A stretch of 64,000 nt of DNA from a virus. The stretch is from IMG/VR virus record IMGVR_UViG_3300042914_002215. The stretch is one strand, 5' to 3'. This document shows positions 12,556 through 62,685 of the stretch, one piece after another. The notes under the pieces were generated by a model, which saw nothing but the letters and a program-made list of their open reading frames with translations, was not told the origin of the DNA and searched no databases. A program made the translations under genes and the position numbers. How positions within the stretch are numbered: the first letter of the stretch is position 1; the number at the start of each line of letters is the position of its first letter.

Positions 12556-12563
12556 TATAAATA
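12556..12563 (+). promoter_or_regulatory. T4-type late promoter TATAAATA
   Basis: Exact T4 late consensus, intergenic, upstream of 12598; gp55 is encoded in the window. Confidence 0.7.
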
Positions 12564-42235: not shown

Positions 42236-43579
42236 ATGTATTTGTCTGAAAATCTACAATCAAAATGGGAAAGCGTTCTGGATCATCCAGATATGCCAAA
42301 GATTGCTGACCCATATCGTAAAGCCGTTACAGCAGTCATTCTTGAGAACCAAGCTCAAGAAATGATCAAAGAAGGTGCAATCCTGAATGAAACAGGTTCA
42401 CCAACTAACTTTGCTGGTACAGGTGGTTTCAGTGGCGGTGCTGCTGCTGCTGGTCCAGTTGCTGGTTTTGATCCAATCCTGATCAGCCTGGTTCGTCGTT
42501 CACTACCTAATCTGATTGCGTATGACGTTTGCGGCGTTCAGCCAATGACAGGTCCTACAGGTCTGATTTTTGCGATGCGTACAAAATACTCATCACAAGG
42601 CGGTACAGAAGCATTCTACAACGAAGCTAACACAGCATTCTCTGGTGCTAATGGTGCTATCGTTGCTTCTTCAATGAGCATTTCTGGTAATACAACAGAC
42701 TATCTGTTTACAGGTAACGCTGCTCCAACAGGCGCAATGACAACTGGTTCTGCTGAAGCACTGGGTGATGGCGCTGCTGGTAACACATTCCAAGAAATGG
42801 CATTCTCAATTGAGAAAGTTACTGTAACAGCACGTACACGTGCTCTGAAAGCAGAATACTCAATGGAACTGGCACAAGACTTGAAAGCAGTTCATGGTCT
42901 TGACGCTGAGACAGAACTTGCAAACATTCTGTCTGCTGAAATTCTTGCTGAAATCAACCGTGAAGTTATCCGTACAATCTACAAGATTGCTAAGCCAGGT
43001 TGCCAAGCAGGTACAACAACCAAAGGTGCATTCAACTTAGACACAGACTCAAACGGTCGTTGGATGGTTGAAAAGATCAAAGGTCTGGCATTCCAGATTG
43101 AGCGTGAAGCAAATCAAATTGCAAAGACAACTCGTCGTGGTAAAGGTAACATCGTTATCTGTTCTTCAGACGTAGCATCTGCTCTTGCAATGGCTGGTAT
43201 CCTTGACTATAACTCAGCACTTGCTGGTCAAGTATCACTGACAGTTGACGATACAGGTAACACATTTGCTGGTACAATCTTCGGTCGTATCAAAGTTTAC
43301 ATCGATCCATACTTCCCAGTTGGCTCAACATCTGAGTTTGCTGTTGTAGGTTACAAGGGTACTAACGCATACGATGCTGGTATGTTCTACTGCCCATACG
43401 TTCCTCTACAAATGGTTCGTGCAGTTGATACTGGTACTTTCCAGCCAAAGATCGGCTTCAAGACTCGTTACGGTCTGGTAGCAAATCCATTCGCAGAAGG
43501 TACAGATCAAGGTCTTGGCGCTCTGAACGCACAGACAAACAACTACTACCGTGGTTTCCGTATTGCGAACCTGATGTAA
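42236..43579 (+). CDS. gp23: major capsid protein gp23
   Basis: DP.LISLVRR..PNLIAYD.CGVQPM.GPTGLIFAMR, RALKAEYS.ELAQDLKAVHGLDAE, FQPKIGFKTRYG. Confidence 0.98.
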   Translation: MYLSENLQSKWESVLDHPDMPKIADPYRKAVTAVILENQAQEMIKEGAILNETGSPTNFAGTGGFSGGAAAAGPVAGFDPILISLVRRSLPNLIAYDVCGVQPMTGPTGLIFAMRTKYSSQGGTEAFYNEANTAFSGANGAIVASSMSISGNTTDYLFTGNAAPTGAMTTGSAEALGDGAAGNTFQEMAFSIEKVTVTARTRALKAEYSMELAQDLKAVHGLDAETELANILSAEILAEINREVIRTIYKIAKPGCQAGTTTKGAFNLDTDSNGRWMVEKIKGLAFQIEREANQIAKTTRRGKGNIVICSSDVASALAMAGILDYNSALAGQVSLTVDDTGNTFAGTIFGRIKVYIDPYFPVGSTSEFAVVGYKGTNAYDAGMFYCPYVPLQMVRAVDTGTFQPKIGFKTRYGLVANPFAEGTDQGLGALNAQTNNYYRGFRIANLM

Positions 43580-44424: not shown

Positions 44425-44859
44425 ATGAGCAAACTTGACGAAGTATTACAAATGTGGACTGCGGATTCTAATATCGACCGCACTGAACCAGGTAAGGCAC
44501 TGATTGACATTCCAAAATTACATTCCAAATATCTGAATATCTTATCGTCACATCGGCTACTGGCCAAAGAAGCAGAGTTTCAGTATAATAAATGGCGAAA
44601 GTTAAAATGGGAATACTATACAGGTAAACTAGATGAAGATGATCTAGCAAAATATGGATGGCAGCCATTTCCTTATACCCTCAAATCAGAGATCAATACA
44701 TACTTAGAAGCAGATGAAGATATCAATAAGTATCTTGCAAGAAAACTTTTGCATGAAGAGATTGTTGATGTTTGCCAAGCCATACTAAAAGAATTGAACA
44801 ATAGAACGTGGGAACTTCGTTCATTTATTGATTGGGAAAAGTTTATTCAAGGTGTCTGA
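44425..44859 (+). CDS. uvsY: recombination mediator UvsY
   Basis: W..DS.ID, IPKLHSKYL, KWEYY.GK, YL.AD.D, IDW.KF..G; extended -10 TGATATAAT at 44396-44404. Confidence 0.9.
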   Translation: MSKLDEVLQMWTADSNIDRTEPGKALIDIPKLHSKYLNILSSHRLLAKEAEFQYNKWRKLKWEYYTGKLDEDDLAKYGWQPFPYTLKSEINTYLEADEDINKYLARKLLHEEIVDVCQAILKELNNRTWELRSFIDWEKFIQGV

Positions 44860-46333
44860 TATTGTTCTCTACAAGCAAAATGAAGCATTCATCAAGTTTG
44901 ACTGTGAAAAAAGTATTGCACAAGAACTTGCCGACTACTTCACATTCTTTGTACCAGGTTATCAGTTTATGCCTGCGTACAAGAATCGTCTTTGGGATGG
45001 TAAGATAAGACTTGCTGATTTACGTACATATACTATCTATCATGGTCTTGTGCCGTACATTGAAAAGTTTTGTGAAGAAAGAGATTACAAACTTGAGATT
45101 GATTCGCCAGTAACTAGCACAGAGAACTTCTCAGCATTAGAAGCCAAAGAGTTTATACAGCAACTTCATCTAGACAAAAGCATTATAACAGAGGGTGTCA
45201 GGGAATATCAAGTCAAAGCCTTCTTATTTGCCGTAAGAAATAGACGAATGCTGTTATTATCACCGACTGGTTCTGGTAAATCTTTGATTCAGTATCTCAT
45301 TCTTAGGTATTTGCAACACAAAGGTTACAAGAAAGGACTGCTAATTGTTCCTACAACTTCTCTTGTTGAGCAAATGTATGCTGATTTTGTATCATATGGC
45401 TATGATGCCGCAGAGTATGCCCATAGACAGTATTCGGGAAAAGACAAGCATACAGATAAGTTTCTAACTATTACCACGTGGCAATCTATCTACAAGAATC
45501 CACCCGAATACTTTGAACAATTTGATTTTGTATTAGGTGATGAAGCACATCAGTTCAAAGCAAAGTCATTGACTACCATCATGACTGGTCTGAAGAATGC
45601 CGGATATAGAATAGGCTGTACAGGTACGATTGATGGTACGCAAACACATAAGTTGGTTCTAGAAGGTTTGTTTGGTCCAGTATATCAGTCTACTACCACA
45701 GCAAAACTAATTGAGAACAAGCAACTTGCAGACTTTCGTATCAAGTGTTTGGTACTGAAGTATCCAGATAACGTTTGCAAGATGTCACGTGAATGGGACT
45801 ATCAATCGGAAATAGACTACATAGTTAGTAGTAAAGCACGAAATGAGTTTGTTCGGAATCTAGCCTTGTCATTAGAGGGCAATTCACTTATATTATTCAA
45901 TCTGGTAGAGAAACATGGTAAACAACTTTACAAACTCATTAAAGAAAAAGCTGGTGACAGGCACGTTTTTTTTGTGTATGGTGGAACAGATGTGGAAGTC
46001 CGTGAGCAAGTCCGTTCAATAACGGAGAAACAGAATGGTGCGATTATTGTGGCTTCTTATGGTACATTCAGCACTGGTATTAACATTCGTAATCTTCACA
46101 ATGTTGTCTTTGCATCACCGTCTAAGTCTAGAGTTCGTAATCTACAGTCCATCGGCAGAGGTTTACGAATCGGAGACAATAAAACAGAAGCCGTTCTGTA
46201 TGATTTAGCAGACGATTTTCGTATTGGTAAACATGTCAACTTCACATTGAAACATCTCCAGGAACGTGTTAGAATATACGATGACGAAAAATTCAAGTAT
46301 AAATTTTACAATATAGAGGTCAAGAATGCATAA
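44852..46333 (+). CDS. uvsW: SF2 DNA helicase UvsW
   Basis: WDGKIRL, SPTGSGKS, DEAH, ASYGTFSTGINI, LQSIGRGLR; probable GTG start at 44852. Confidence 0.95.
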   Translation: MSDIVLYKQNEAFIKFDCEKSIAQELADYFTFFVPGYQFMPAYKNRLWDGKIRLADLRTYTIYHGLVPYIEKFCEERDYKLEIDSPVTSTENFSALEAKEFIQQLHLDKSIITEGVREYQVKAFLFAVRNRRMLLLSPTGSGKSLIQYLILRYLQHKGYKKGLLIVPTTSLVEQMYADFVSYGYDAAEYAHRQYSGKDKHTDKFLTITTWQSIYKNPPEYFEQFDFVLGDEAHQFKAKSLTTIMTGLKNAGYRIGCTGTIDGTQTHKLVLEGLFGPVYQSTTTAKLIENKQLADFRIKCLVLKYPDNVCKMSREWDYQSEIDYIVSSKARNEFVRNLALSLEGNSLILFNLVEKHGKQLYKLIKEKAGDRHVFFVYGGTDVEVREQVRSITEKQNGAIIVASYGTFSTGINIRNLHNVVFASPSKSRVRNLQSIGRGLRIGDNKTEAVLYDLADDFRIGKHVNFTLKHLQERVRIYDDEKFKYKFYNIEVKNA

Positions 46334-46748
46334 CGTAAAACTTATAAGAATGCAATCTGGTGAAGATATTATGGCTTCTATGTTTGAGCAGGAAGATTCA
46401 GAACAAGTTCAACTCAATGATCCTATGCGTTTGGTATTTCGTCGTATGCCTACAGGTCAAACTGTAATGATGATGATGCCTTGGTTGCCAGTTGAATTGA
46501 TCAAAGAGAACTCAGCATTAGTATATACTTCTGATATCGTCACAGTTATAGATCCAAAAGAATCTATGATTCGTTATTATGATAAGTTAGTTGAAAGAAC
46601 AATAAATGATATGGCAGATTCAGACAAAATGCTTGATCAGTTATTGGAAGAACAGGAAGAAGAAGAGGATGAAAGTCAACAACAAGAAGAAATGATGCAA
46701 GAGTTGTTGCAACACATTCAGGAAGTAAAAAATAAAAAGTTACATTAA
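46326..46748 (+). CDS. conserved hypothetical protein following uvsW
   Basis: VKLIRM.SGEDI...L.DP...MPWLP pattern; acidic tail. Confidence 0.6.
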   Translation: MHNVKLIRMQSGEDIMASMFEQEDSEQVQLNDPMRLVFRRMPTGQTVMMMMPWLPVELIKENSALVYTSDIVTVIDPKESMIRYYDKLVERTINDMADSDKMLDQLLEEQEEEEDESQQQEEMMQELLQHIQEVKNKKLH

Positions 46749-46762
46749 AAGGAATTTTTGTT

Positions 46763-48286
46763 ATGTCAAAAGTGGTGACATTTGTTATACCGAGCAGTGC
46801 TGCACAAGCATACCAAGCACTTGCAAATAAATATTCTGCTATTGAACCTCCAACATGGGCATTATTGTTAGCCAATGCTGTTCGTGTTGAAGGTTATGAC
46901 CCATGTATTTTAGACTTTGATGCCGAGCCAGCAAGGGACTATGAACATGCTGCACATCAAATTGCAGAAACAGGAACAGATATAGCAGTCTTTGTTCTTT
47001 ACGGACAAAATCCAAACTCAGGCACCACAATGATGATTGGTGCATCCAAGTTAGCAACACAACTCAAACTTTCCTATCCTTCAATCAAGATCGTATTCAT
47101 CGGTTCACATGCATCTGCATTGCCATATGAAGTCATTGGTCTATCATATGTTGATTTTGTATTCATTAATGAAGGCGTATATGGTCTGTTAGATTTGTTG
47201 CAGACAAACTATGTTGATGGTTTAGATAAAGTTCGTGGTCTTGTTTATAAGAAACATGGATTTGCTGCAACTGGTGCACCGGGTGAGATTGTACAAACAA
47301 AAGACATGGATCGTGTGATGCCTGGTTATGCATGGGATTTGTTACCAAAGAAAAGAAAACTGTTAGACAAATATCGTGCTCACTATTGGCACAACTACTT
47401 CAAAGATGATGATGGACGTACACCGTTTGCTGCTATCTCAACATCATTAGGTTGTTCGTTCGGCTGTAACTTCTGTATGATCAACATTGTGAATCGTACA
47501 TCATATGAACAAGGTACAGTATCATCTGACTCACGTGGTATGCGTTTCTGGTCACCTGAATTGATGCTCAAAGAGTTTGAATATCTGTATGAGAATGGTG
47601 TTCGTACAGTTCGTCTAACAGATGAGATGTTCTTTTTGAATAAAAAGTATTACATACCAATTCTTGAAGGCATCAAACAGCGTGGTATGGACTTCAACTT
47701 CTGGGCATATGCACGTGTTGATTCTGTGCGTAAAGATCAATTAGAGTTATTCAAAGAAGCAGGTGTGAATTGGCTGTGCCTTGGTATTGAAGCAGCAAAT
47801 CAAAACGTGAGACTTGAAATTGAAAAAGGTAAGTTTGAAGATGTAGACATTCGTCGTGTTGTTTCTGACATCAAAGCAGCCGACATTAACATACTTGGTA
47901 ATTACATGTTTGGTTTTCCTGAAGATACAATGGAAACAATGCAAGAAACACTTGATCTGTCACTTGAATTGAATACAGAACATGCCAATTTCTATGCGGC
48001 AATGGCATTGCCAGGTAGTCCACTGTACATGTACGCAAAGAACAATGGATGGGAATTGCCAGAAAGATTTGAAGAGTTTGCATTCTTGTCTTATGACTGC
48101 AAACCACTACGCACAAAGACACTTGAAGGTGCAGAAGTGTTGAAGTTCCGTGATGAAGCATGGCACAAATACTTCTCACATGAGCCGTTCTTGAATCTTG
48201 TTGAAACAAAGTTTGGTGCAGACTCACGTGCAAACATTGAACAGATGTCAAAAATAAAATTGAAACGAAAAATACTTGGAGATTGA
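46763..48286 (+). CDS. cobalamin-binding radical SAM enzyme (class B methyltransferase-like)
   Basis: N-terminal B12-binding-like domain (PP...LLLA, IG.HASALP, EG), CxxxCxxC = CSFGCNFC, DEMF, LGIE.AN, YMFGFP.DT, LPGSPLY. Confidence 0.88.
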   Translation: MSKVVTFVIPSSAAQAYQALANKYSAIEPPTWALLLANAVRVEGYDPCILDFDAEPARDYEHAAHQIAETGTDIAVFVLYGQNPNSGTTMMIGASKLATQLKLSYPSIKIVFIGSHASALPYEVIGLSYVDFVFINEGVYGLLDLLQTNYVDGLDKVRGLVYKKHGFAATGAPGEIVQTKDMDRVMPGYAWDLLPKKRKLLDKYRAHYWHNYFKDDDGRTPFAAISTSLGCSFGCNFCMINIVNRTSYEQGTVSSDSRGMRFWSPELMLKEFEYLYENGVRTVRLTDEMFFLNKKYYIPILEGIKQRGMDFNFWAYARVDSVRKDQLELFKEAGVNWLCLGIEAANQNVRLEIEKGKFEDVDIRRVVSDIKAADINILGNYMFGFPEDTMETMQETLDLSLELNTEHANFYAAMALPGSPLYMYAKNNGWELPERFEEFAFLSYDCKPLRTKTLEGAEVLKFRDEAWHKYFSHEPFLNLVETKFGADSRANIEQMSKIKLKRKILGD

Positions 48287-48288
48287 TT

Positions 48289-49059
48289 ATGGATTTGCAG
48301 AGACAAGCAAACTTATATCGTAAAGAATTATTTGAGAAGTTTGTAGAAGTTGGACAGGGACATCCTGGTTCTACATTCTCAATGTTAGAGATTGTGACTA
48401 CACTTTATCATGGCGGCTATGTTGGCTTTGAAGATAAAGTTCTTATCAGCAAAGGACATGCAACTGTTGCACTTTATCCTATTCTGAAAAACTTTGGAGT
48501 TATTGCTGAAGAAGATTGGAATAATTGGGGCAAAGGATTACCATCATGCTTGCGTGTGTTTGGTAACATTTCTATTCCAGGCATTGACATGACTTCAGGT
48601 TCATTGGGACATGGCGTTGGTGTTGGTGCAGGCATGGCAATTGGCAATCCAGATAGTCATGTGTATACAATCATCTCGGAAGGTGAACTGTATGAAGGTT
48701 CAACATGGGAAGGATTATTGTTCGTTGCACACCGTCAGTTGAAAAACATGACAATCTTTATTGATGTAAACAATCTTATTATTCTAGGAAAAACTGATGA
48801 TTGTCTGCGCCTTAATTCTATCAAAGACAAGCTATCTGGGTTTGAGTTTGATATTTACACTGTCGATGGTCACAACACAAACTCTATACAAGCAGCCTTG
48901 GATGCAGCCTCTAATCAACCAAAAATAATTATTGCAAACACTGTCAAAGGTAAAGGTTTTTCATTGATGGAGAACAAACCAGAATGGCATTACATGCAAG
49001 CAATTACACCAGAACAAATTGAACAGTGCCGTAAGGAGATTAATGATGCTACAGCGTGA
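48289..49059 (+). CDS. transketolase-like protein, N-terminal (ThDP-binding) subunit
   Basis: GHPG...S, LISKGHA, GSLGHG, SEGE..EG..WE...N, DGHN, TVKGKG, WH. Confidence 0.9.
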   Translation: MDLQRQANLYRKELFEKFVEVGQGHPGSTFSMLEIVTTLYHGGYVGFEDKVLISKGHATVALYPILKNFGVIAEEDWNNWGKGLPSCLRVFGNISIPGIDMTSGSLGHGVGVGAGMAIGNPDSHVYTIISEGELYEGSTWEGLLFVAHRQLKNMTIFIDVNNLIILGKTDDCLRLNSIKDKLSGFEFDIYTVDGHNTNSIQAALDAASNQPKIIIANTVKGKGFSLMENKPEWHYMQAITPEQIEQCRKEINDATA

Positions 49060-49957
49060 TGCATTTATTGAAGAAGTAAAGAAACGTTTAGAGACTGATA
49101 AAGATATTTACTTTCTGTCTGCTGACTTTGGTGCAGCAGCGTTAGATAGTCTACGTGAAGAGTATCCAGATAACTTTGTTCACTGCGGTATCTCAGAGCA
49201 AGCAATGCTTGACATTGCAACTGGTCTTGCATTGCAAGGTAAAAAAGTATTCTGTTACGCCATGGCACCATTCATCTCACTCCGTGCTATTGAACAAATC
49301 AAATGCGGTCCATCAATGATGAATCTGCCTATTGCTATTCTTTCTGTTGGTATTGGTATTGGATATGCTGATGCCGGTCCTACTCATTACATCACAGAAG
49401 ATTTTGCATGTATGCGTTCAATCATCAATCTGAATGTATACACATTAGCAGATGCAAGTTCGGCTAAACGATTGGCTAATCAAGTATTAGACAATCCAGA
49501 ACTGTGTTACATTCGTTTTGATCGTCATGATCAACCAGAACTACCAGTAACTAATTTTAAGAATGATCTGACTTATCGTTTGATTGGTGATACTGTTGAT
49601 AAATCAAAAGTGTTATTGATTGGCTCGGGTAAAATGTCTCACATTATAAGTGAAGTGTGTAGAGAAAGAGATGATGTTGTTGGTGTTGATTTGATTCGTG
49701 CCAAACCATTTCCATTTTCTTTCTCTAACTTGTTGACTGAGTGTAAGGGTGTAATTGTTGTTGATGAACAAACACCATGCGGCTCATTGGGTGCAGCAGT
49801 CATGGAAGATATGGCATCAAACTCCATATTAAAACCTATACACGTTATCACATTGCCAGAACAATATTTGTTTGAGAATGGTGGTCGTGAATATTTGTTG
49901 AAGAAACATGGTCTGAGCAAAGAAAATATCATACAAAAACTGAATGATTATTTCTAA
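49043..49957 (+). CDS. transketolase-like protein, C-terminal subunit
   Basis: RBS AAGGAG; LSADFG, GISEQAM, GPTH...ED, YIRFDR. Confidence 0.9.
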   Translation: MMLQRDAFIEEVKKRLETDKDIYFLSADFGAAALDSLREEYPDNFVHCGISEQAMLDIATGLALQGKKVFCYAMAPFISLRAIEQIKCGPSMMNLPIAILSVGIGIGYADAGPTHYITEDFACMRSIINLNVYTLADASSAKRLANQVLDNPELCYIRFDRHDQPELPVTNFKNDLTYRLIGDTVDKSKVLLIGSGKMSHIISEVCRERDDVVGVDLIRAKPFPFSFSNLLTECKGVIVVDEQTPCGSLGAAVMEDMASNSILKPIHVITLPEQYLFENGGREYLLKKHGLSKENIIQKLNDYF

Positions 49958-50930
49958 AACACCGTATAGACTGTCACTATTTGGTGGTGGTACAGATTAT
50001 CCAGCGTGGTTTGAAACGAAACAAACGAAGATAATCTCGGCTGCTATGGCACATTATTGCTATGTCAGTTTGAAGAAACTGCCGCCATACTTTGATTATG
50101 TAAATAGAGTTATCTACTCAAAGATAGAGAGTGTAAAAGACATTTCAGATATAGATCATCCTTCTGTAAGGGAGTGTTTGAAATACTATGGAATACCTAA
50201 TGGCATTTCTATTAGCCATGACGGCGATCTACCTGCTCGGTCTGGCATTGGCTCATCTTCTTCATTTACTGTTGGACTAATCAATGCTATTCATACTTAC
50301 TTAGGGTATCGTAAAGTAAGTAAATTCCAATTAGCAAGTGAAGCAATCAATATTGAACAAAACTATATTGGTGAATCTGTTGGTGTGCAAGATCAAATTA
50401 TGGCTGCATATGGTGGCATTCGTGTCATTGAATTATCTGGTGCTAATATCAATGTTCGTGATCTGAGAGTGAAAGATAGTTATGTTCTTGATCTTGAAGA
50501 ACACATCATGTTGGGCTTTTCTGGTATAGATAGACTTTCTGACGTACATGCCAAACAACAGGTGCAGTCAATCAAAGAAGGTAAGTCGGTCAAATTATTG
50601 GAAGAAATAGCATCTATTACAAATAATGCATTGCATATATTTGAAAGTTATGGTAAAATAAAAGAAATAGGTGAGTTGTTAGACTATCAGTGGAAACGCA
50701 AACGTGAACTCACGAATAGTGTTACAACTGATTACATAGATAACATATACACTAAAGCAATGAATGCTGGTGCGTATGGTGGTAAGTTGATGGGTGCAGG
50801 TGGTGGTGGATTCTTTATGTTTCTTGCACCACCAGATGCACATGAGAAAATAAAACAAGCAATACCTGAAATCAACGTATGGGTGCCTTTTGCATTTGAT
50901 TACGAAGGCTCAAAAATTATTATGGAGTGA
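49944..50930 (+). CDS. GHMP-family sugar kinase, HddA-like (heptose-7-phosphate 1-kinase family)
   Basis: TPYRLSLFGGGTDYP, DLPARSGIGSSSSF, G.QDQ..AAYGG, GGKLMGAGGGGF. Confidence 0.88.
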   Translation: MIISKTPYRLSLFGGGTDYPAWFETKQTKIISAAMAHYCYVSLKKLPPYFDYVNRVIYSKIESVKDISDIDHPSVRECLKYYGIPNGISISHDGDLPARSGIGSSSSFTVGLINAIHTYLGYRKVSKFQLASEAINIEQNYIGESVGVQDQIMAAYGGIRVIELSGANINVRDLRVKDSYVLDLEEHIMLGFSGIDRLSDVHAKQQVQSIKEGKSVKLLEEIASITNNALHIFESYGKIKEIGELLDYQWKRKRELTNSVTTDYIDNIYTKAMNAGAYGGKLMGAGGGGFFMFLAPPDAHEKIKQAIPEINVWVPFAFDYEGSKIIME

Positions 50931-50932
50931 TT

Positions 50933-52105
50933 ATGAAGTACCCACTAATGTCAGACAATATTACTAGAGAAGATTTAGATTTGGTAATAGAGCATCTCAA
51001 AAAAGGTAATCCAAAACTAACTAATGGTCCAGAGTGCCGTGCTTTTGAAGAAGCATGGAGCAAATGGTTGGGTGTAAAGTATTCTGTGTTTGTAAACTCA
51101 GGTGCTTCTGCTAATCTATTGTCTATGACAATGTTGAAGATTCTACATCCAGAAGGCGGTGAAGTTATCGTGCCACCATTCACATGGATATCTGATGTTG
51201 CATCTGTTCTACAGTGTGGTTTTACACCAGTGTTTGTTGACATTGACTTGAATACACTTGGCATGAACACTGAAGGTATTCTCAAAGCAATTACACCAAA
51301 AACACGTGCAGTGTTTCTTACATATGCACAAGGCTTCAACTGTCTTACAGACGAATTGTTATTGAAACTACAAGCACTCAATATTCCATTGATTGAAGAT
51401 GTGTGTGAATCACATGGCGCAAAACACAACGACCAATTATTAGGTAGTTTTGGTTGGATGTCTAATTTCTCATTCTACTTTGCACATCATATGTCAACGA
51501 TTGAGGGTGGTATGGTATGCACAAACGATGAAAATGTATATCACACAGTTCGTATGCTTCGTTCACATGGCATGGTGCGTGAGTGTGGTTCAGAAAGCAT
51601 GAAGCAATCATATCAGGACATGTATCCTGAACTCAATCCTGATTTTATCTTTGCGTATCCAGCATATAACATGCGTAACACAGAGATTGGTGGTATACTT
51701 GGCCAGAATCAGTTGAAATATTTGGATGAAAATGTGTCCAAACGAAATGATAATTTACTTTACTTCATGAATAAATTGGATGGAACAAAATATAAAGTAG
51801 ATTTTAATTATGATGGTTGCAGTAACTATGCATTCAATATTGTGCTACAACCAGAATATGCCAACAAAGATTTTGCACAAAGACTCATGCACAAAATGCG
51901 TGATAATGAGATAGAGTATCGTCGTGGTTCTGCTGGTGGTGGTAATCAGTTGCGTCAGCCATATCTGACTGGTGTGTACGGTGATCATTACTTAGATTTT
52001 CCTAACACAGAACACATGCACTTCTACTCATTCTATATTGGAAATTATCCAACATTGAGTAAGATGGCAATTGATGAAATAACTGGCGTATTGAATAGGG
52101 TGTAA
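50933..52105 (+). CDS. PLP-dependent DegT-fold enzyme, ColD/E1-like NDP-sugar 3-dehydratase
   Basis: NSGASANL, IEDVCESHGA, FSFYFAHHMSTIEGG (His at the usual Schiff-base Lys position), RSHG. Confidence 0.82.
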   Translation: MKYPLMSDNITREDLDLVIEHLKKGNPKLTNGPECRAFEEAWSKWLGVKYSVFVNSGASANLLSMTMLKILHPEGGEVIVPPFTWISDVASVLQCGFTPVFVDIDLNTLGMNTEGILKAITPKTRAVFLTYAQGFNCLTDELLLKLQALNIPLIEDVCESHGAKHNDQLLGSFGWMSNFSFYFAHHMSTIEGGMVCTNDENVYHTVRMLRSHGMVRECGSESMKQSYQDMYPELNPDFIFAYPAYNMRNTEIGGILGQNQLKYLDENVSKRNDNLLYFMNKLDGTKYKVDFNYDGCSNYAFNIVLQPEYANKDFAQRLMHKMRDNEIEYRRGSAGGGNQLRQPYLTGVYGDHYLDFPNTEHMHFYSFYIGNYPTLSKMAIDEITGVLNRV

Positions 52106-52107
52106 TT

Positions 52108-53049
52108 ATGGGACAATGGCGTGTATTAGTAACTGGTGGTGCTGGTTACATTGGTAGCATTCTTGTTGAATATCTTTTACAGATGGGTTGTTTAGTAACT
52201 GTAATTGATAACTTCATGTTCGGACAAACAAGTCTGAATCACTTGTGTGACAATAAAAATCTAAAGATTGTGAACGGTGACATTCGTAATCCATCACACA
52301 TGGCACCTCTACTAAAAGAAGCAGACATAGTTATACCTCTTGCTGCATTAGTGGGTGCACCACTGTGTAATAAAGATGTTGTTGGTGCAGACACGACAAA
52401 TAAAGATGCGATGTTCTGGATGCTGAATGCTGTATCTAAAAAACAACGCATTATTATGCCTACAACTAACTCAGCATATGGCACTGGCGATGAGAACAAC
52501 TTCTGTACAGAGGAATCACCACTGCGTCCAATCTCTAAGTATGCGATTGATAAAGTAGCAGTTGAAGAAAGATTGATGGAACGTGAGAACTCTATCAGTT
52601 ATAGACTAGCAACTGTGTTTGGTATGTCACCACGTATGCGTACTGACTTGTTAGTAAATGATTTGACATATCGTGCAGTCAATGATGGTTATGTTGTTAT
52701 CTTTGAAGGTCATTTCAAACGTAATTATATTCATGTACGTGATGTTTGTGAAGCATTCTTACATGCAATCTATCAGTTTGAAGAAATGAAAAGCAACATC
52801 TATAATGTAGGATTGTCATCTGCAAATGTATCTAAGTTGGAACTATGTGAGATTATCAAAAAACATGTGCCAAACTTTACGATTGTAGAAGGTGATATCA
52901 AGAAAGATCCAGATCAAAGAAACTACATTGTATCTAATGAGAAGTTGGAAGCAACTGGTTGGTATCCTTATCACACATTAGATGATGGCGTTGAAGAACT
53001 AATCAAAGGTTATCAGTATCTCAAAAACAATAAACACGGTAACGTATGA
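52108..53049 (+). CDS. NAD-dependent sugar epimerase/dehydratase/reductase (extended SDR)
   Basis: VLVTGGAGYIGS, YAIDK (YxxxK), RLATVFG.SPRMR.DL.VN, RNYIHV.D. Confidence 0.9.
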   Translation: MGQWRVLVTGGAGYIGSILVEYLLQMGCLVTVIDNFMFGQTSLNHLCDNKNLKIVNGDIRNPSHMAPLLKEADIVIPLAALVGAPLCNKDVVGADTTNKDAMFWMLNAVSKKQRIIMPTTNSAYGTGDENNFCTEESPLRPISKYAIDKVAVEERLMERENSISYRLATVFGMSPRMRTDLLVNDLTYRAVNDGYVVIFEGHFKRNYIHVRDVCEAFLHAIYQFEEMKSNIYNVGLSSANVSKLELCEIIKKHVPNFTIVEGDIKKDPDQRNYIVSNEKLEATGWYPYHTLDDGVEELIKGYQYLKNNKHGNV

Positions 53050-53585
53050 GCACAAACAACCATTATGTAAACAATGCTGACTTTCTTGCAGCACTCATCA
53101 AGTACCGTGATGAATGTGAACATGCAAAGAAAAACAGCACACAAGAACCAAAGATACCAGACTACATTGGTGAATGCTTTCTAAAGATTGCAGAACATCT
53201 ATCACGTAAGCCAAACTTTATTTCATACACATATCGTGATGAGATGATATCGGATGGTGTAGAAAACTGTCTGATGTATTTCCGTAACTTTGATCCTGCT
53301 AAGTCTAAGAATCCATTTGCTTACTTCACACAGATAATTTATTATGCCTTTCTGCGTAGAATTATGCGTGAGAAGAAGCAACTGTATGTAAAGTATAAGG
53401 CAACACAACAGTTTGGTTTGTTAGATGAAGGCGAAATGTACGAAGATGAAAACGGCAACATGAAACAGTTTGAGTTGTACGACAATATCTCCGAGTTCAT
53501 TCATAACTTTGAAGAAAACAAAAAGAAAAAGAAGGTAAAGAAGTTAGTTGGACTTGACAACTTTCTTGATGATGATATAATCTAA
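53046..53585 (+). CDS. gp55: late transcription sigma factor gp55
   Basis: HYVNNADFL, YIGECFLKIA..LS.KPNF..Y.YRDEMI.DG.ENC, NPFAYFTQIIYYAFLRRI..EKKQ. Confidence 0.96.
   Translation: MSTNNHYVNNADFLAALIKYRDECEHAKKNSTQEPKIPDYIGECFLKIAEHLSRKPNFISYTYRDEMISDGVENCLMYFRNFDPAKSKNPFAYFTQIIYYAFLRRIMREKKQLYVKYKATQQFGLLDEGEMYEDENGNMKQFELYDNISEFIHNFEENKKKKKVKKLVGLDNFLDDDII
53554..53581 (+). promoter_or_regulatory. sigma70-type promoter inside the gp55 3' end, upstream of gp47
   Basis: TTGACA-16-TATAAT with extended -10 TG. Confidence 0.6.
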
Positions 53586-54658: not shown

Positions 54659-56364
54659 TATTATTTAAAAGACTACGCTGGAAAAATTTACTCTCAACTG
54701 GCAATCACTTTACTGAGATATTACTAAACGGCAATCCAAACACGCTAATCGTAGGCACAAATGGCTCAGGTAAGTCAACGATGCTTGATGCTTTGTGTTT
54801 TGGTTTGTTTGGCAAGCCGTTTCGTAATATCAACAAGCCCAATCTCCTAAATAGTATTAATGGTAAAGATTGTGTAGTTGAGATTGAGTTTTCTGTTGGC
54901 AATAAAGAATATAAGATTGTTCGTGGTATCAAACCGAATGTGTTTGAGATATACCAAGACGCAGTTTTGCTGAACCAAGATGCGGCTGTAAGAGATTATC
55001 AAGACTACTTAGAGAAGTTCGTTCTCAAACTAAACTACAAGTCTTTCACGCAGATCGTTATTCTTGGTTCAGCATCCTTTACACCGTTCATGCAGTTATC
55101 TGCTGCTGATCGTCGTGCAATCATTGAAGATTTGTTAGACATTCAAATCTTTTCTACAATGAACAGTCTGGTAAAAGAAAGACTGTCAAATAATAAAGAG
55201 TTGACCATAGCCAAGAAGAACGATGTATCACTTCTTGAGCAAAAATATGAACTCAAAAAAGAGCATCAAGATAAACTCAATGAAGATATTGAAGTAAAGG
55301 TAAAAGAATATGAGAAAGAGATACTTCTGCACAGAGAAACAATACGCACCTTATGTGGAGAGATTGACGATCTGGAGCAATCAAAGAAAGCACTTGCCGA
55401 AATCTGTGCGAAAATTCCTGAAAATGAAAAGAAGATTGCTGCGTTTACAAAAGTTGAGTCACAGATTGAGAGCAAAATATCCAAAGTGGGAAATGATAGA
55501 AGTTTCTATGAACACAATGCTGATTGCCCAACCTGTAGGCAAGCCATTACCTTGGAGTTTAAAGAGGGGCAACTCACAGAACTTGCTACAAAAGAACAAG
55601 AACTCAGGAGTGGTCTAACAGAACTACAAACAAAAATAACAGAACAAGAAAATGTTATTGCCGATCTGCGTGAAAAAGAAAAAGAACTGTCTAATGTTCG
55701 TGTTCAAATCGCAACCACAAACACAAGCGTCAAAGGTTTGAATGACACAATCAAGAGACTTGAAAAAGAAATCAAAGAACTAAGAACACCGAAAGTAAAT
55801 AACACAGACACAAACGAATTGGAAACAATTCAAACACAGATAAAAGAATCACAAGAAGAACTAAAGCAGTTGATGATTGATAAAACATATCTTGATGTAG
55901 CATCAACTTTGTTGAAAGATACTGGTATCAAAACCAATATCATCAAACAATATTTGCCTGTGATAAACAAACTGGTAAACAAATATCTTACCAGTATGGA
56001 CTTCTTTGTGAACTTCAATCTTGATGAGTCTTTCAAAGAAACAATCAAGTCACGCCATCGTGATGATTTTAGTTATCACAATTTCTCAGAAGGTGAGAAG
56101 CAGCGTATTGATATGGCATTGATGTTGACATGGAGAGCAGTAGCCAAGTTGAAAAATTCCATAAATACAAACCTACTGATACTGGATGAGGTTTTTGATT
56201 CAAGCCTAGATACCAGTGGCACAGAAGATTTGATGAAGATACTACACACACTTGACAATGTAAATCTGTTTGTCATCAGTCATAAAGGTGACATACTACA
56301 AGATAAGTTTATGAATACAATACGATTTGAGAAAGTCAAAAACTTTTCAAGGATAATGAAATGA
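54655..56364 (+). CDS. gp46: recombination ATPase subunit gp46 (Rad50/SbcC-like)
   Basis: G.NGSGKST, CPTC hook, FSEGEK.RID, LILDEVFDSSLD, ISHK. Confidence 0.96.
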   Translation: MILFKRLRWKNLLSTGNHFTEILLNGNPNTLIVGTNGSGKSTMLDALCFGLFGKPFRNINKPNLLNSINGKDCVVEIEFSVGNKEYKIVRGIKPNVFEIYQDAVLLNQDAAVRDYQDYLEKFVLKLNYKSFTQIVILGSASFTPFMQLSAADRRAIIEDLLDIQIFSTMNSLVKERLSNNKELTIAKKNDVSLLEQKYELKKEHQDKLNEDIEVKVKEYEKEILLHRETIRTLCGEIDDLEQSKKALAEICAKIPENEKKIAAFTKVESQIESKISKVGNDRSFYEHNADCPTCRQAITLEFKEGQLTELATKEQELRSGLTELQTKITEQENVIADLREKEKELSNVRVQIATTNTSVKGLNDTIKRLEKEIKELRTPKVNNTDTNELETIQTQIKESQEELKQLMIDKTYLDVASTLLKDTGIKTNIIKQYLPVINKLVNKYLTSMDFFVNFNLDESFKETIKSRHRDDFSYHNFSEGEKQRIDMALMLTWRAVAKLKNSINTNLLILDEVFDSSLDTSGTEDLMKILHTLDNVNLFVISHKGDILQDKFMNTIRFEKVKNFSRIMK

Positions 56365-56954
56365 GTGAAATACTAACAATTGATACCGCTGCTGGCATAC
56401 AACAAGTAGAACAAGTAGAGCCACTACAAGTGTTTGATGATAACTACTTTATGCTTCAGCAAAAAATACCAGAATACACTGGTGGATTTCCAGCACCAGC
56501 AATGGTAAACTTAGCCAAAAGATTGAAGTTGACAATGAAACTTTATTCTGGTCTTGGTCTTGCTGCTAATCAATGTGGTATTGCAGAGCGAATGTTTGTT
56601 ATTGGTACAGATGAGTTTCAAATGGTATGTATCAATCCAAAAGTATTAGATGAAGATGATGAATGGGAAAAAGGTAAAGAAGGATGTCTATCCTCACCCG
56701 GATTGTTTCTGAATATTGAAAGACCGAAGTCAATCAAAGTAGGATTTACCGATGAGTTTGGTGAATACAAAGAAGCAATGTTACAAGGATTATCTGCTCG
56801 TTGTTACCTTCATGAGCTTGACCATCTGAATGGAATCAAGTATACTAGCTATGTAAAACCACTTGCACTTAGAATGGCAAAACAGAAAGCAAACAAAATT
56901 GTGAAGAAAATTATTAGGAATCACAAAAATGGAAAACAAAGTTCAAGAATCTAG
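56361..56954 (+). CDS. def: peptide deformylase
   Basis: GLGLAANQ, EGCLS, HELDHLNG. Confidence 0.92.
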   Translation: MSEILTIDTAAGIQQVEQVEPLQVFDDNYFMLQQKIPEYTGGFPAPAMVNLAKRLKLTMKLYSGLGLAANQCGIAERMFVIGTDEFQMVCINPKVLDEDDEWEKGKEGCLSSPGLFLNIERPKSIKVGFTDEFGEYKEAMLQGLSARCYLHELDHLNGIKYTSYVKPLALRMAKQKANKIVKKIIRNHKNGKQSSRI

Positions 56955-57279
56955 TTCATATGAAAACTGCATGGAGTTGTTGACCGATGAGTATCAACCT
57001 CCAACACTAAGCAGATTTTTTGGTGAAGAAGAAAATGATGAAGATGGTGGTGTAGATACCGAAAATGCCGAATGGAAAAAGCATTGGGTTGGTATGCCAG
57101 AGTTCGTCCAGAACGACAAGAAAACATTCAAGACAATTTATCTACATTTCCGCAATCAAGAAGATTATGATGCATTTGCCAAATTGGTTGATCAGAATCT
57201 CACTATGAAAACAAAGTCTATCTGGTATCCAAAACTAGAGCGTGATGAAAACTCACTCAAGAGATGGATTGAAGAGTGA
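56929..57279 (+). CDS. small acidic protein with W..HW.GMPEF motif, likely glycosyltransferase partner
   Basis: WKKHWVGMPEF.Q, HFRNQEDY..FA....Q.LT.KTKSIWYP. Confidence 0.6.
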   Translation: MENKVQESSSYENCMELLTDEYQPPTLSRFFGEEENDEDGGVDTENAEWKKHWVGMPEFVQNDKKTFKTIYLHFRNQEDYDAFAKLVDQNLTMKTKSIWYPKLERDENSLKRWIEE

Positions 57280-57280
57280 A

Positions 57281-58072
57281 ATGGATTTTCTGAAAGAAAA
57301 GCCTCAGGTTCTGTTTGAATATTTTCTACAAGACTATGGCAGTTTATTTGATATAGACGCTGAAGAGTGTAGAGCACTAAGAAAAACAGATAAGATTTTC
57401 CAAGAACTGTCAATAAAATGGTATGATGATCTGGAACATGAGCATGAAAGAAACATTTATGAGGTGTACAATCACGATTACTATTTTATAGATATCTTCA
57501 ATTGTTTTGTTACCTATAGCAGAGATTATATCAAACGTATAATCAAGTCATCACACTTTCAGGAACTCAAAGATGCCAAAGTAATCGTTGACATCGGTTG
57601 TGGAATAAGTTATAGTACATGCTTACTGAAGCAAATATTTCCTGAAGCAAAAGTCTATGCCATAAATCTCAAAGGCACCAAACAATGGAAGTTATGTGAG
57701 ATAATGGCGCAAAGATTTGATTTCAATCTTGTTGAATCTATTCATGACATTGAAGAATCGGTTGATATTCTATGGGCTTCAGAATACTTTGAGCACATTT
57801 ATAATCCAATTGAACATGTTGATGATATAATTAAAACACTGAATCCAAAACATATGATTGTAGCAAACTCATTCAACACATGGGGAATGGGACACTTTAC
57901 AAAGTATGATGTCTATGGTACAATAGTAAGTCAAGACAAAGTTAGTAAAATGTTCAATCAACATTTGATGGCAAAACAATATGAGAATGTCAAATGTGGA
58001 ATATGGAATAACAAACCTATAGTATGGAAAAGAAATGACCAATCCAACACATCCAGTTTATATCGTTTCTAA
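57281..58072 (+). CDS. class I SAM-dependent methyltransferase
   Basis: Motif I VIVDIGCGISYS; SEYFEHI..P; probable start ATG 57281. Confidence 0.7.
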   Translation: MDFLKEKPQVLFEYFLQDYGSLFDIDAEECRALRKTDKIFQELSIKWYDDLEHEHERNIYEVYNHDYYFIDIFNCFVTYSRDYIKRIIKSSHFQELKDAKVIVDIGCGISYSTCLLKQIFPEAKVYAINLKGTKQWKLCEIMAQRFDFNLVESIHDIEESVDILWASEYFEHIYNPIEHVDDIIKTLNPKHMIVANSFNTWGMGHFTKYDVYGTIVSQDKVSKMFNQHLMAKQYENVKCGIWNNKPIVWKRNDQSNTSSLYRF

Positions 58073-58931
58073 AGGTCGTTCAGACACAATGATCACCTCA
58101 CGATCATTGTCACGCATGAGAGTACCACACTACATTGTAATTGAACCACAAGATAAAAAGCCATATGAGGATGCACTTGATAAGTTCGGCATTCGTGACT
58201 ATGTAACATTGATTGTCGCACCGTTCAGTAATCATGGTGATGGTCCTGGTCGTGCAAGGAACTTTGCATGGGATCATTCTATCTCTATCGGTGCAGAGAA
58301 ACATTGGGTGCTTGATGATAATATCGCAGACTTCTACCGCTTGCATAACAACTATCGTATTCGTGTAGAGTCTGGCTGCATCTTCAAAGCAGCAGAAGAT
58401 TTCATTGATAGATTTGAAAATGTGCCAATCTCTGGCTTTCAGTATCGTTTCTTCATTGCACCAAATCAAAGTTATCCACCATATGTAAAGAATACACGAA
58501 TCTATTCTACACTATTGATTGATAATAATTGCAAGCACCGTTGGCGTGGTAGATATAATGAAGATACTGATATCTGTCTGCGTGTATTGAAAGATGGTGA
58601 CTGCACCATTCAATTTAATGCATTTCTTCAAGGCAAAGCAGCGACACAAACTGTCAAGGGTGGTAATACAGAAGAGTTCTATCACAAAGAAGGTGTTGAA
58701 AAGAATCATTGGGTAGATGGTGTCAATGCTGAAGGTACCAGAAACAAATCAGAAATGCTGGTACGTATGCATCCAGATGTAGCACGAATGGTATGGAGAT
58801 ACAAACGCTGGCATCATTATGTTGATTATTCACCGTTCAAGAAGAATGAACTGCGTTATAAAAAGAACATCACAATACCAACTGGTACAAATGAATATGG
58901 TATGAAATTGGTAACTAATTTCAAGTCTTGA
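58035..58931 (+). CDS. GT-A glycosyltransferase, TET-associated (TAGT)/GREB1-like family
   Basis: VYIVSKGR, RARNFAWD, HWVLDDNI, RIYSTLLI, WRGRYNEDTDICLRVLK, GGNT. Confidence 0.78.
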   Translation: MTNPTHPVYIVSKGRSDTMITSRSLSRMRVPHYIVIEPQDKKPYEDALDKFGIRDYVTLIVAPFSNHGDGPGRARNFAWDHSISIGAEKHWVLDDNIADFYRLHNNYRIRVESGCIFKAAEDFIDRFENVPISGFQYRFFIAPNQSYPPYVKNTRIYSTLLIDNNCKHRWRGRYNEDTDICLRVLKDGDCTIQFNAFLQGKAATQTVKGGNTEEFYHKEGVEKNHWVDGVNAEGTRNKSEMLVRMHPDVARMVWRYKRWHHYVDYSPFKKNELRYKKNITIPTGTNEYGMKLVTNFKS

Positions 58932-61497: not shown

Positions 61498-62685
61498 ATG
61501 GCAACACGTGCTGAAAAACGCCAAGCATTTATTGATGCTATTCTGGCAACTGGTAAGACTCAAGTTACCACTGATGATATTCGTGATATCGTAGAACAAA
61601 CTGGCCTGAAGTGGCCACAGTGGTTCACTAAAGATGAATCATATCGTATCAAGCGTGGTGTGTTCCGTGTTCCTGGTGTCTCCAATGAAGCACCAGAGCC
61701 AATCAATATGGTCGCACAAGTAATACCCATGGCAAAACCTGCTGCTCCTGTTGCTGGCAATCGTATTGCTAATGTGACAACTGATCTTGAAATTGAGAAT
61801 CTGATTCCAACTCAATACAAAAACTATGTACCTTTTGGCAACTTTGAAGATGTGTTGTCAATCGTACAATCTAGTCAATTCTTCCCTGTGTTCATTACTG
61901 GTCAATCTGGTAATGGTAAAACAATGTCAATTGAACAGGCTTGTGCCAAAGCAAAACGCAAATTTGTTTGCGTATCAATGACACCTGACACCGACGAAGG
62001 CGATCTTCTTGGTAACTATGTTCTGATCAACGGTCAGATGGAATGGCGTGATGGTCCTGTCACGGTTGCAGCCCGTCAGGGTGCTGTACTCTGTATTGAT
62101 GAGATTGATTACGGTGCTCAGAATCTTTCCTGTCTCCAACGTGTACTTGAAGGTAAACCATTCTTGCTGAAGAAAAAGAATGAACTGGTTACACCTGCAC
62201 CTGGTTTCACTGTCTTTGCTACTGCTAATACCAAGGGTAAAGGCTCTGAAGATGGTCGTTATATGTTTACCAACGTGTTGAACGAAGCGTTTCTTGAGCG
62301 TTTTCCTAACACTATGGAACAAGATTGGCCGCCGGCTAAGATTGAAGAAAAGATTATCGGCAAAGAACTTGATGCAGTTGGTCGTCCTGATGCATCATTT
62401 GCCAAGAATCTTGTGACATGGGCGAATGCAATTCGTACTACATTTGCCGATGGTGGCTGTGATGAAGTTATCTCCACACGCCGTCTGGTACACATTGTCA
62501 AAACTTTCGGTATCTACAATGATAAAAAGAAAGCGATTGAGTATTGCTTGAATCGTTTTGATGCCGATACTAAGGCTACCTTCTTTGACTTGTATACCAA
62601 AGTTGATGCTGGTGTTGATCCTACTGTCGCACCTCCACATGAAGAGAAGTCTACCGCAACTGAAGGTGAAGAGATTCCATTCTAA
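61498..62685 (+). CDS. cobS: CobS-like/MoxR-type AAA+ ATPase
   Basis: GQSGNGKT, DEGDLLG, IDEID, TANTKGKG..DGRY, LNEAFLERF, ISTRRLVHI. Confidence 0.88.
   Translation: MATRAEKRQAFIDAILATGKTQVTTDDIRDIVEQTGLKWPQWFTKDESYRIKRGVFRVPGVSNEAPEPINMVAQVIPMAKPAAPVAGNRIANVTTDLEIENLIPTQYKNYVPFGNFEDVLSIVQSSQFFPVFITGQSGNGKTMSIEQACAKAKRKFVCVSMTPDTDEGDLLGNYVLINGQMEWRDGPVTVAARQGAVLCIDEIDYGAQNLSCLQRVLEGKPFLLKKKNELVTPAPGFTVFATANTKGKGSEDGRYMFTNVLNEAFLERFPNTMEQDWPPAKIEEKIIGKELDAVGRPDASFAKNLVTWANAIRTTFADGGCDEVISTRRLVHIVKTFGIYNDKKKAIEYCLNRFDADTKATFFDLYTKVDAGVDPTVAPPHEEKSTATEGEEIPF

Follow-up and report, generated by a model that had tools for sequence, protein, structure and literature searches.

What kind of sugar would an uncultured phage make with six metabolic genes set between its UvsW helicase and its late sigma factor? 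The question is posed by IMG/VR virus record IMGVR_UViG_3300042914_002215, a T4-like myovirus, of which a stretch of 64,000 nucleotides (the window) was analysed. Six plus-strand genes at 46763-53049, all with their open reading frames (ORFs) present, are tightly packed between uvsW/DUF6561 and gp55. They encode a radical S-adenosylmethionine (SAM) enzyme with a B12-type domain, the two halves of a split transketolase dependent on thiamine diphosphate (ThDP), a sugar kinase, a DegT-fold enzyme dependent on pyridoxal or pyridoxamine phosphate (PLP or PMP) and a short-chain dehydrogenase/reductase (SDR). A first-pass annotation had read these overlapping or abutting genes, the last of which shares an ATGA with gp55, as a cassette for a 3-deoxy, C-branched, radical-SAM-tailored higher-carbon nucleoside diphosphate (NDP)-sugar. 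ORFs, Pfam domains and junctions are as it described, and domains, residues and gene context largely support its idea of the product.

In the model that we favour with moderate confidence, a GDP-heptose would be converted into a 3-deoxy, C4-branched, radical-SAM-tailored sugar. GDP-heptose modification, sugar branching by ThDP enzymes and class B radical SAM chemistry are known kinds of reaction; their combination appears to be the new part.

The predicted C4 and C3 steps and the HddA-like kinase

The SDR aligns over residues 5-312 with PDB entries 6vo6/6vo8 at approximately 60% identity (E = 2e-106), and the next PDB match follows at 1.5e-21. We take these entries to be Cj1427 of Campylobacter jejuni, a GDP-heptose C4-dehydrogenase. 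The GxxGxxG motif is present as an N-terminal GGAGYIG, and YxxxK (Y145, K149) is unchanged throughout 31 phage and 49 bacterial copies. The first-pass annotation had let the SDR epimerise or reduce; the fold stands, and that generic role gives way to a narrower one, since the enzyme is a close relative of the solved 6vo6. If 6vo6 is Cj1427, the match points to a GDP-heptose with a C6 hydroxyl as the substrate, not to a 6-deoxy sugar.

The best PDB match of the DegT enzyme is ColD (2gms, 3.3e-49, 171 bits), compared with 1.5e-33 (120 bits) for E1 (3bcx), an Fe-S enzyme that depends on an E3 reductase. Its segment FAHHMST aligns with SHHIAT of ColD, where the mutant entries H188N/H188K mark the catalytic histidine. 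This histidine replaces the Schiff-base lysine in all 42 phage copies and, among 49 bacterial copies, in 47. Because of the replacement, and with ColD as the nearest relative, the enzyme is predicted to be of the 3-dehydratase type and not an aminotransferase, in agreement with the earlier ColD/E1-type assignment. In vitro, Cj1427 and the HS:5 C3-dehydratase together with PLP and glutamate convert GDP-heptose into GDP-D-glycero-4-keto-3-deoxy-heptose (Raushel group, PMC10680097). Homology and catalytic residues argue strongly that the phage pair would likewise carry out C4 oxidation and C3 deoxygenation.

By resemblance the kinase can be classed as HddA-like, that is, of the heptose-7-phosphate 1-kinase type, and not as an HddA equivalog. 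Its top four PDB matches are all HddA/WcbL-type heptose kinases (3k85, 4n3o and 4usk among them, E = 3e-32 to 9e-30), and its homologues sit with GmhA, GmhB and a nucleotidyltransferase (NTP-transferase) in bacteria, e.g., at locus L102. Homology and bacterial gene context lend moderate support to a phosphorylation at C1.

Related gene clusters in bacteria

The bacterial relatives were collected from one genome per prokaryotic species, using a 5-sequence radical SAM alignment as the query; the best 80 of at least 419 relatives were kept, and genes lying up to 10 kb away from the radical SAM gene were counted. The carriers include Bdellovibrio, Colwellia, Pseudoalteromonas, Marinomonas, Paenibacillus, cyanobacteria and Nitrospira, as well as Planctomycetes, Rhodospirillales, Myxococcota, Omnitrophota, single cells of Pelagibacteraceae and some archaea. 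Bdellovibrio sp. HCB290, Marinomonas ostreistagni and Floridaenema fluviatile are culturable representatives among them.

A ThDP enzyme of some kind lies near the radical SAM homologue in 65 of the 80 loci: E1alpha/beta only in 39, a split transketolase in 14, a 610-aa acetolactate-synthase/YerE-like enzyme only in 10, and E1 together with an acetolactate-synthase-like enzyme in 2. A GHMP kinase (40-52% identity) is found in 55 loci, a homologue of the phage SDR (40-60% identity) in 48, a second SDR in 44 and an NTP-transferase in 42. GT2 glycosyltransferases (14/80), HAD phosphatases (11/80) and SIS isomerases (7/80) occur as well.

Several of these partners are informative about the sugar. 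GmhB passes its NCBIfam cut-off and GmhA falls just short of its own (204 versus 209 bits); NCBIfam identifies the NTP-transferase as a mannose-1-phosphate/HddC-like guanylyltransferase, and the second SDR resembles GDP-L-fucose synthase (Fcl; 397 bits versus a cut-off of 500). Together, they argue for a GDP-linked heptose.

Two single-cell genomes of Pelagibacteraceae (L124, L138) encode, in the gene order of the phage, the radical SAM enzyme, E1alpha, E1beta, the kinase, the His-type DegT enzyme and the SDR, with an RmlC-like 3,5-epimerase between the last two. Identities to the phage proteins are 39-51%, and no phage genes lie nearby; the phage-like gene order hints that SAR11-type cells may make the sugar. 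In another bacterial contig (L087), genes for an SDR, transketolase N, transketolase C, the radical SAM enzyme and a GT2 glycosyltransferase are consecutive. The phage cassette derives from this widespread bacterial gene cluster.

A conserved cassette with an exchangeable ThDP enzyme in phages

With the radical SAM protein as the query, IMG/VR yielded 80 phage loci (76-98% identity). In all 80 of them uvsW and the DUF6561 gene directly precede the radical SAM gene, and all sufficiently long loci continue with the kinase, DegT and SDR genes and then gp55, every ORF being intact; this placement is far beyond chance. With 80 phage loci and many bacterial phyla, the proposal that the genes are of unrelated origins and do not co-occur fails, and the same holds for the view of the cassette as peculiar to one phage, since it is shared by a large phage clade.

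What varies is the slot of the ThDP enzyme. About half of the IMG/VR loci carry the split transketolase, as in the window (variant A), and the others have two short genes (202 + 176 aa) in its place (variant B). The short pair matches E1_dh/TPP_enzyme_C and Transket_pyr and amounts to a minimal E1alpha/E1beta-type ThDP enzyme. In a maximum-likelihood tree of the radical SAM proteins all variant A sequences group in one clade (92/90 support), with variant B making up the rest; a single in-place swap of the ThDP genes therefore suffices. On a different phage-like contig (L081), a radical SAM gene of 42% identity is accompanied by E1alpha, SDR, DegT and glycosyltransferase genes.

Among the cultured phages of the collection searched, none contains the cassette: blastn with the whole cassette returned only a weak match of 280 bases to the 3-dehydratase gene of S-CAM7, and tblastn with the radical SAM enzyme gave nothing beyond a 24% match, in Streptomyces phage SF3.

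The ThDP enzyme as a candidate for carbon branching

The N half of the transketolase finds its best PDB match in the split transketolase 6yak (2.8e-42) and the C half in 6yaj (2.5e-21), and both halves score far under every NCBIfam transketolase cut-off. The residues were compared by aligning both halves to E. coli TktA as annotated in the K-12 record. His26, His66, Asn185, His261, Arg358, Glu411, His473 and Arg520 are kept, among them the catalytic histidines and Glu411, which activates the cofactor, and four positions are changed (His100Phe, Ser385Ala, His461Gly, Asp469Ala). In all 26 phage copies the ThDP/metal motif G-D-G reads S-E-G (S132-E133-G134); the homologues from bacterial clusters keep G-D-G. 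The canonical set of G-D-G plus acceptor and phosphate residues is incomplete in the phage enzyme, whose catalytic core is intact, with an acceptor/phosphate pocket unlike that of a pentose-phosphate transketolase.

Most likely, the ThDP enzyme would acylate C4 of a GDP-3-deoxy-4-keto-heptose. This reading follows from the neighbouring genes for a 3-deoxy-4-keto sugar nucleotide, the altered transketolase pocket, the non-orthologous replacement of the enzyme in phages and bacteria and the natural fusion of a radical SAM enzyme with E1alpha described below. A transketolase would transfer a hydroxyacetyl group and an E1 enzyme an acetyl group, and variants A and B may consequently make different sugars. 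We know of no in vitro demonstration of a ketone-accepting split transketolase or a ketone-accepting mini E1 pair.

The radical SAM enzyme

The first protein of the cassette matches Pfam Radical_SAM with 63 bits and carries an N-terminal B12-binding domain, which scores 30.4 bits against a cut-off of 32.1 and up to 61 bits in homologues. The three cysteines of its CxxxCxxC motif (C231/C235/C238) do not vary among 79 phage and 80 bacterial copies. None of the named NCBIfam family cut-offs is reached, and a search of the ESM Atlas returned only generic “B12-binding radical SAM” clusters. With more than 7,600 proteins at E <= 1e-10 in a 90%-clustered collection, and 308 representatives at E < 1e-30 in a 50%-clustered library, the enzyme belongs to a large family of its own without a characterised member. 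As an aside, many homologues (P0122, P0123, P0128, P0143 and P0191 among them) measure 640-990 aa on account of inteins (Intein_splicing, Hint, LAGLIDADG), which are situated near CxxxCxxC or near residue 410-420; the copy in the window is intein-free.

One homologue, P0171, naturally combines the radical SAM enzyme and a complete E1alpha in a single protein. This fusion, like the gene neighbourhoods of L081 and L087, argues for a functional coupling of the radical SAM and ThDP enzymes. The two may form a coupled pair, fused in some organisms, with a combined reaction that has not been described.

The proposed pathway

In the proposed route, GmhA of the host would isomerise sedoheptulose-7-phosphate, a step for which one phage relative has a gmhA-like gene of its own. 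The HddA-like kinase of the phage would phosphorylate C1, and GmhB and a guanylyltransferase of the host would complete GDP-heptose. Next, the Cj1427-like SDR would oxidise C4, the ColD-type His-DegT enzyme would remove the C3 hydroxyl to give GDP-3-deoxy-4-keto-heptose, and the ThDP enzyme would place a two-carbon acyl branch on the C4 ketone, namely hydroxyacetyl in the case of the split transketolase and acetyl in the case of the mini E1alpha/beta of sister phages. The B12 radical SAM enzyme would then tailor the product, with C-methylation as the most likely and radical rearrangement as a possible outcome, and a reductase and a glycosyltransferase from outside the cassette would finish and transfer the sugar.

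Our confidence is not uniform along this route. The branching step, which draws on gene context, non-orthologous replacement and altered active-site residues, is held with lower confidence than the core of heptose, C4 and C3 chemistry; the same applies to the radical SAM reaction, and the acceptor of the sugar is likewise conjectural. Since isomerase, phosphatase, nucleotidyltransferase, reductase and transferase lie outside the phage cassette, the host must supply several steps as well as cobalamin, and probably has a related pathway of its own.

Evidence against the model and alternative explanations

Several observations weigh against this model, among them the missing steps themselves. A tblastn search of the window with proteins of the bacterial clusters did not find an isomerase, a phosphatase, a nucleotidyltransferase or a GT2 glycosyltransferase, and within the window the reductase, too, falls outside the cassette; on the first three enzymes the search agrees with the first-pass annotation. 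Gene content beyond the window was assessed in five long IMG/VR relatives, and since these are 36-75% complete, absences from them are weak evidence. In a variant B relative (G001, 75% complete, 133-kb contig) a gmhA-like isomerase gene lies at L175:1393-2016, about 65 kb downstream of the cassette (TIGR00441, 158 bits, cut-off 209), and GmhB was not found in the partial phage relatives. The sole NTP-transferase found in a relative, again G001, is RmlA/GlmU-like and belongs to a separate cluster. Furthermore, the identity of 6vo6/6vo8 as Cj1427 is presumed, the title of 6vo6 reading only “putative sugar-nucleotide epimerase/dehydratase”, and S-E-G is unusual as a ThDP motif.

The separate cluster of G001 (L085, G001:C1:54000-73000) is situated about 36 kb downstream of the cassette, the equivalent position being beyond the end of the window. 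It encodes a methyltransferase, a DUF7796 protein, the RmlA/GlmU-like NTP-transferase, an APH-like kinase, a sugar phosphate cyclase and a short-chain dehydrogenase. The cyclase (378 aa) is dehydroquinate-synthase-like and scores 215 bits with aroB, below the cut-off. Its gene content resembles that of a pathway to a cyclitol nucleotide, which would likewise consume sedoheptulose-7-phosphate.

Among the alternatives, the one that survives best shares the route to the 4-keto sugar nucleotide and departs from it at the radical SAM enzyme, which would rearrange or cyclise the sugar in the manner of HpnJ or OxsB, or act as an AprD4-like dehydratase, to leave a carbocyclic or ring-contracted product. 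The best NCBIfam match is indeed HpnJ (120 bits versus a cut-off of 578, covering residues 63-471), followed by BchE, and the single clear PDB match is the diol-dehydratase AprD4 (1e-10); these nearest named relatives are non-methyltransferases and count against a methyl transfer. The cyclase cluster of the related phage would fit an interest in cyclitol chemistry. Yet all these scores are far under the family cut-offs, the methyltransferase families PhpK, HpnR and TsrM-type score too, most B12-domain enzymes of radical SAM class B are methyltransferases, and the cyclase cluster is 36 kb away and was not seen adjoining the cassette. C-methylation of an unactivated carbon, judged from family resemblance, is most likely what the enzyme would do, and it is the least certain step of the model; rearrangement or cyclisation is a real and possible alternative in view of HpnJ and AprD4, and we consider the carbocyclic or ring-contracted reading as a whole unlikely.

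We regard as quite unlikely that the cassette is a mixed bag, in which a pentose-phosphate transketolase raises sedoheptulose-7-phosphate, the remaining sugar genes make a plain, unbranched 3-deoxy-heptose nucleotide, and the radical SAM enzyme is unrelated. Both transketolase halves do match real transketolases best, including the active split enzyme of 6yak/6yaj; sedoheptulose-7-phosphate is a heptose precursor; and T4-like phages of aquatic bacteria carry pentose-phosphate genes. Two of four phosphate-binding residues, the arginines Arg358 and Arg520, are kept, so that a phosphorylated substrate is possible, which counts against the branching step; the arginines could equally bind the diphosphate of GDP. 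On the other hand, the E1alpha/beta pair that fills the slot in most sister phages cannot be a transketolase, the bacterial slot holds E1, transketolase or acetolactate-synthase-like enzymes, and P0171 joins the radical SAM enzyme to E1alpha. In addition, His100, Ser385, His461 and Asp469 are replaced, and the NCBIfam transketolase cut-offs are missed by far. Altered acceptor residues, slot replacements and the fusion favour ThDP branching over pentose-phosphate chemistry.

A third explanation retains the branched 3-deoxy sugar and changes the substrate to a hexose, e.g., GDP-mannose or another NDP-hexose, which would lead to a yersiniose-type product. The kinase scores 144 bits with NCBIfam HddA (NF049969) against an equivalog cut-off of 600, and its substrate could therefore be another sugar phosphate; the earlier assignment as an HddA-type kinase stands with respect to its top four structural matches and not with respect to this cut-off. 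GmhA or GmhB lies within 10 kb in only 7-11 of the 80 bacterial loci, and the best NCBIfam match of the bacterial NTP-transferase is mannose-1-phosphate guanylyltransferase. Against a hexose stand the SDR, about 60% identical to the presumed heptose-specific Cj1427, the uniform match of the kinase to heptose kinases, the presence of GmhA and GmhB inside some bacterial clusters such as L102 and the gmhA-like gene of one related phage. Moreover, yersiniose-type 3,6-dideoxyhexoses require a 4,6-dehydratase, which is not present. A hexose substrate is accordingly judged distinctly improbable. A phosphonate pathway, with the mini ThDP pair as a phosphonopyruvate or sulfopyruvate decarboxylase and a Fom3/PhpK-like radical SAM enzyme, was dropped, with no search made for PEP mutase, because the short pair is E1_dh + Transket_pyr and not TPP_enzyme_N/C, and because the conserved partner genes encode sugar-nucleotide enzymes.

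Comparison with known systems

The GDP-heptose pathway of C. jejuni (PMC10680097) has in common with the phage cassette an HddA-type kinase, an SDR and a His-type PLP/PMP 3-dehydratase. The capsular route of C. jejuni comprises GmhA, HddA, GmhB, HddC, Cj1427, the HS:5 C3-dehydratase, epimerases and C4-reductases, and Cj1427 was combined with the 3-dehydratase in an in vitro mix that gave novel GDP-3-deoxy-heptoses (PMC10680097). In the bacterial clusters the likeness extends to GmhA, GmhB, the guanylyltransferase, the RmlC-like epimerase and an Fcl-like reductase. In contrast to C. jejuni, whose pathway is devoid of a ThDP enzyme and a radical SAM enzyme, the phage has both, and its cassette is without an isomerase, a phosphatase, a nucleotidyltransferase and a reductase.

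A review of 2025 lists three ThDP superfamilies that are known or proposed to attach acyl branches to keto-sugars: YerE-like enzymes, the E1alpha/beta-type alphaKADH2 and split transketolases (PMC12247030). YerE-like enzymes branch yersiniose, erwiniose and caryophyllose, and alphaKADH2 serves aldgarose and kibdelomycin, among others. Split transketolases are proposed for miharamycin and amipurimycin; the known cases belong without exception to the secondary metabolism of Streptomyces and are untested in vitro (PMC12247030). As in these systems, the ThDP gene of the cassette adjoins genes for a 3-deoxy-4-keto sugar, and the same three superfamilies share its slot. The known substrates are CDP- or TDP-deoxyhexoses, whereas GDP-heptoses are proposed here; and none of the known branching enzymes is viral, or paired or fused with a B12 radical SAM enzyme as in the phage cassette. 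The unusually small E1 pair and the S-E-G motif are further peculiarities of the phage clade.

GenK, Fom3, AprD4 and HpnJ are class B radical SAM enzymes that act on sugars or small hydroxyalkyl groups, and the phage enzyme resembles them in its N-terminal B12-type domain, its CxxxCxxC core and its place in a carbohydrate pathway. Cassettes of sugar-nucleotide and radical SAM genes are carried by pelagimyophages and cyanomyophages, where they are thought to alter the host surface (PMC7029224). The cassette of the window is not described in that work, and the sugar genes of those phages reside in a hypervariable host-recognition cluster, whereas the block described here is fixed between uvsW and gp55 throughout the clade. 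The literature searched holds no description of the viral cassette, the mini E1 pair, the S-E-G transketolase or a coupling of radical SAM and ThDP enzymes.

Genomic setting of the cassette

The window preserves the T4-like order of prohead protease, scaffold, UvsY, UvsW, gp55, gp47 and gp46, and the major head protein encoded at 42236-43579 shares about 64% identity with the counterparts of cyanophages P-RSM6 and P-TIM40. The features of the cassette and its flanks are collected in Table 1. For three genes an upstream start had been listed: ATG 48289 of transketolase N, preceded by GGAG, is likelier than TTG 48283, ATG 49043 of transketolase C, preceded by AGGAG, is likelier than TTG 49019, and ATG 50933 of the DegT gene, preceded by GGAG, is likelier than GTG 50927.

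Table 1. The six cassette genes, with predicted functions, and their immediate neighbours in the window (aa, amino acids).
Feature	Position	Strand	Support
Class B (B12-domain) radical SAM enzyme, 507 aa	46763..48286	+	Pfam Radical_SAM + B12-binding
Split transketolase N, ThDP diphosphate-binding half	48289..49059	+	Pfam Transketolase_N 1e-20
Split transketolase C, pyrimidine-binding + C-terminal half	49043..49957	+	Pfam Transket_pyr 1.2e-22, Transketolase_C
HddA-like GHMP sugar kinase, 328 aa	49944..50930	+	Pfam GHMP_kinases_N/C
ColD-type PMP/PLP-dependent sugar 3-dehydratase, DegT fold	50933..52105	+	Pfam DegT_DnrJ_EryC1 2.8e-65
Extended SDR	52108..53049	+	Pfam Epimerase/GDP_Man_Dehyd
Upstream flank (context, outside pathway): UvsW helicase	44828-46333	+	Pfam UvsW_N, ResIII, Helicase_C
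Upstream flank (context, outside pathway): DUF6561 protein	46326-46748	+	Pfam DUF6561
Downstream flank (context): gp55 late sigma factor	53046..53585	+	phrog_234, E = 1.6e-61

The stop of the SDR gene and the start of gp55 share ATGA at 53046-53049, which suggests that gp55 is translationally coupled to the SDR gene; at the remaining junctions of the cassette the genes overlap or are separated by a few bases at most. Between 44 and 54 kb, neither a terminator-like site or hairpin nor the T4 late-promoter motif was found; the motif, TATAAATA, occurs upstream of structural genes at 12556, 41088 and 43644. The guanine-plus-cytosine content of the cassette equals that of its flanks. Packed junctions, the lack of a terminator and of a late promoter, and the flank-like base composition let the cassette read as part of the early/middle block uvsY-uvsW-gp55-gp47-gp46, in line with the single transcription unit that the first-pass annotation had assumed.

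Sigma-70-like matches in the promoter scan occur at the chance rate. One perfect sigma-70 consensus (53554-53581: TTGACA, 16 nt with TG, TATAAT) is located in the 3'-terminal part of gp55, with gp47 starting 7 bases farther on, and is likely an early promoter for gp47 and gp46.

Possible targets of the sugar

Surface glycans of the infected host cell are the most probable target; their remodelling, the default reading, resembles a suggestion made for the sugar genes of pelagimyophages (PMC7029224). Phage DNA is a possible and not favoured target. It comes into view through a TAGT-family glycosyltransferase at 58035-58931 (PF20691, 4.6e-41), about 5 kb downstream of the cassette, whose gene is overlapped by that of a class I methyltransferase (57242-58072). 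A paper of 2026 applies the family name to the T6-type enzyme through which glucosylated hydroxymethylcytosine in DNA receives a second glucose (PMC13390438). The module may mark a sugar modification of phage DNA.

The TAGT module and a 116-aa ORF (56929-57279) form a variable insertion flanked by the genes for peptide deformylase and a 753-aa protein. It is found in the window and 7 relatives and absent from 4 relatives that bear the cassette, which shows that the cassette does not require TAGT. In the five partial relatives, no gene of the thymidylate synthase family (hydroxymethylase) was found, and a Tet_JBP search returned no matches; since it gave none in the control genomes either, this negative is uninformative. 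We give little credence to a transfer of the branched heptose to phage DNA by the TAGT enzyme; if it took place, no earlier case of a viral genome hypermodified with a carbon-branched, heptose-type sugar would precede it.

Other genes in this part of the window encode a peptide deformylase (56361-56954), an AAA_5/CbbQ-type, CobS-like ATPase (61498-62685) and a 271-aa protein (63155-63970) that matches the Anp1 mannosyltransferase family weakly, below threshold, and is possibly a further glycosyltransferase.

Implications

The early block of a lytic phage retains five costly cofactor-dependent enzymes, which rely on B12, an iron-sulfur cluster, ThDP, PLP and NAD, and the cassette implies a host that supplies cobalamin. 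Possible roles of the product include remodelling of the host surface against superinfection, decoration of the virion and modification of DNA. Three ThDP superfamilies that swap in one slot represent a natural experiment on substrate scope. If the model is true, the product would be a sugar not yet described, namely a 3-deoxy-heptose linked to GDP that bears an acyl branch at C4 and a change installed by the radical SAM enzyme. Its makers would be uncultured T4-like phages of aquatic habitats, which form a large and abundant clade, together with bacteria from at least a dozen phyla.

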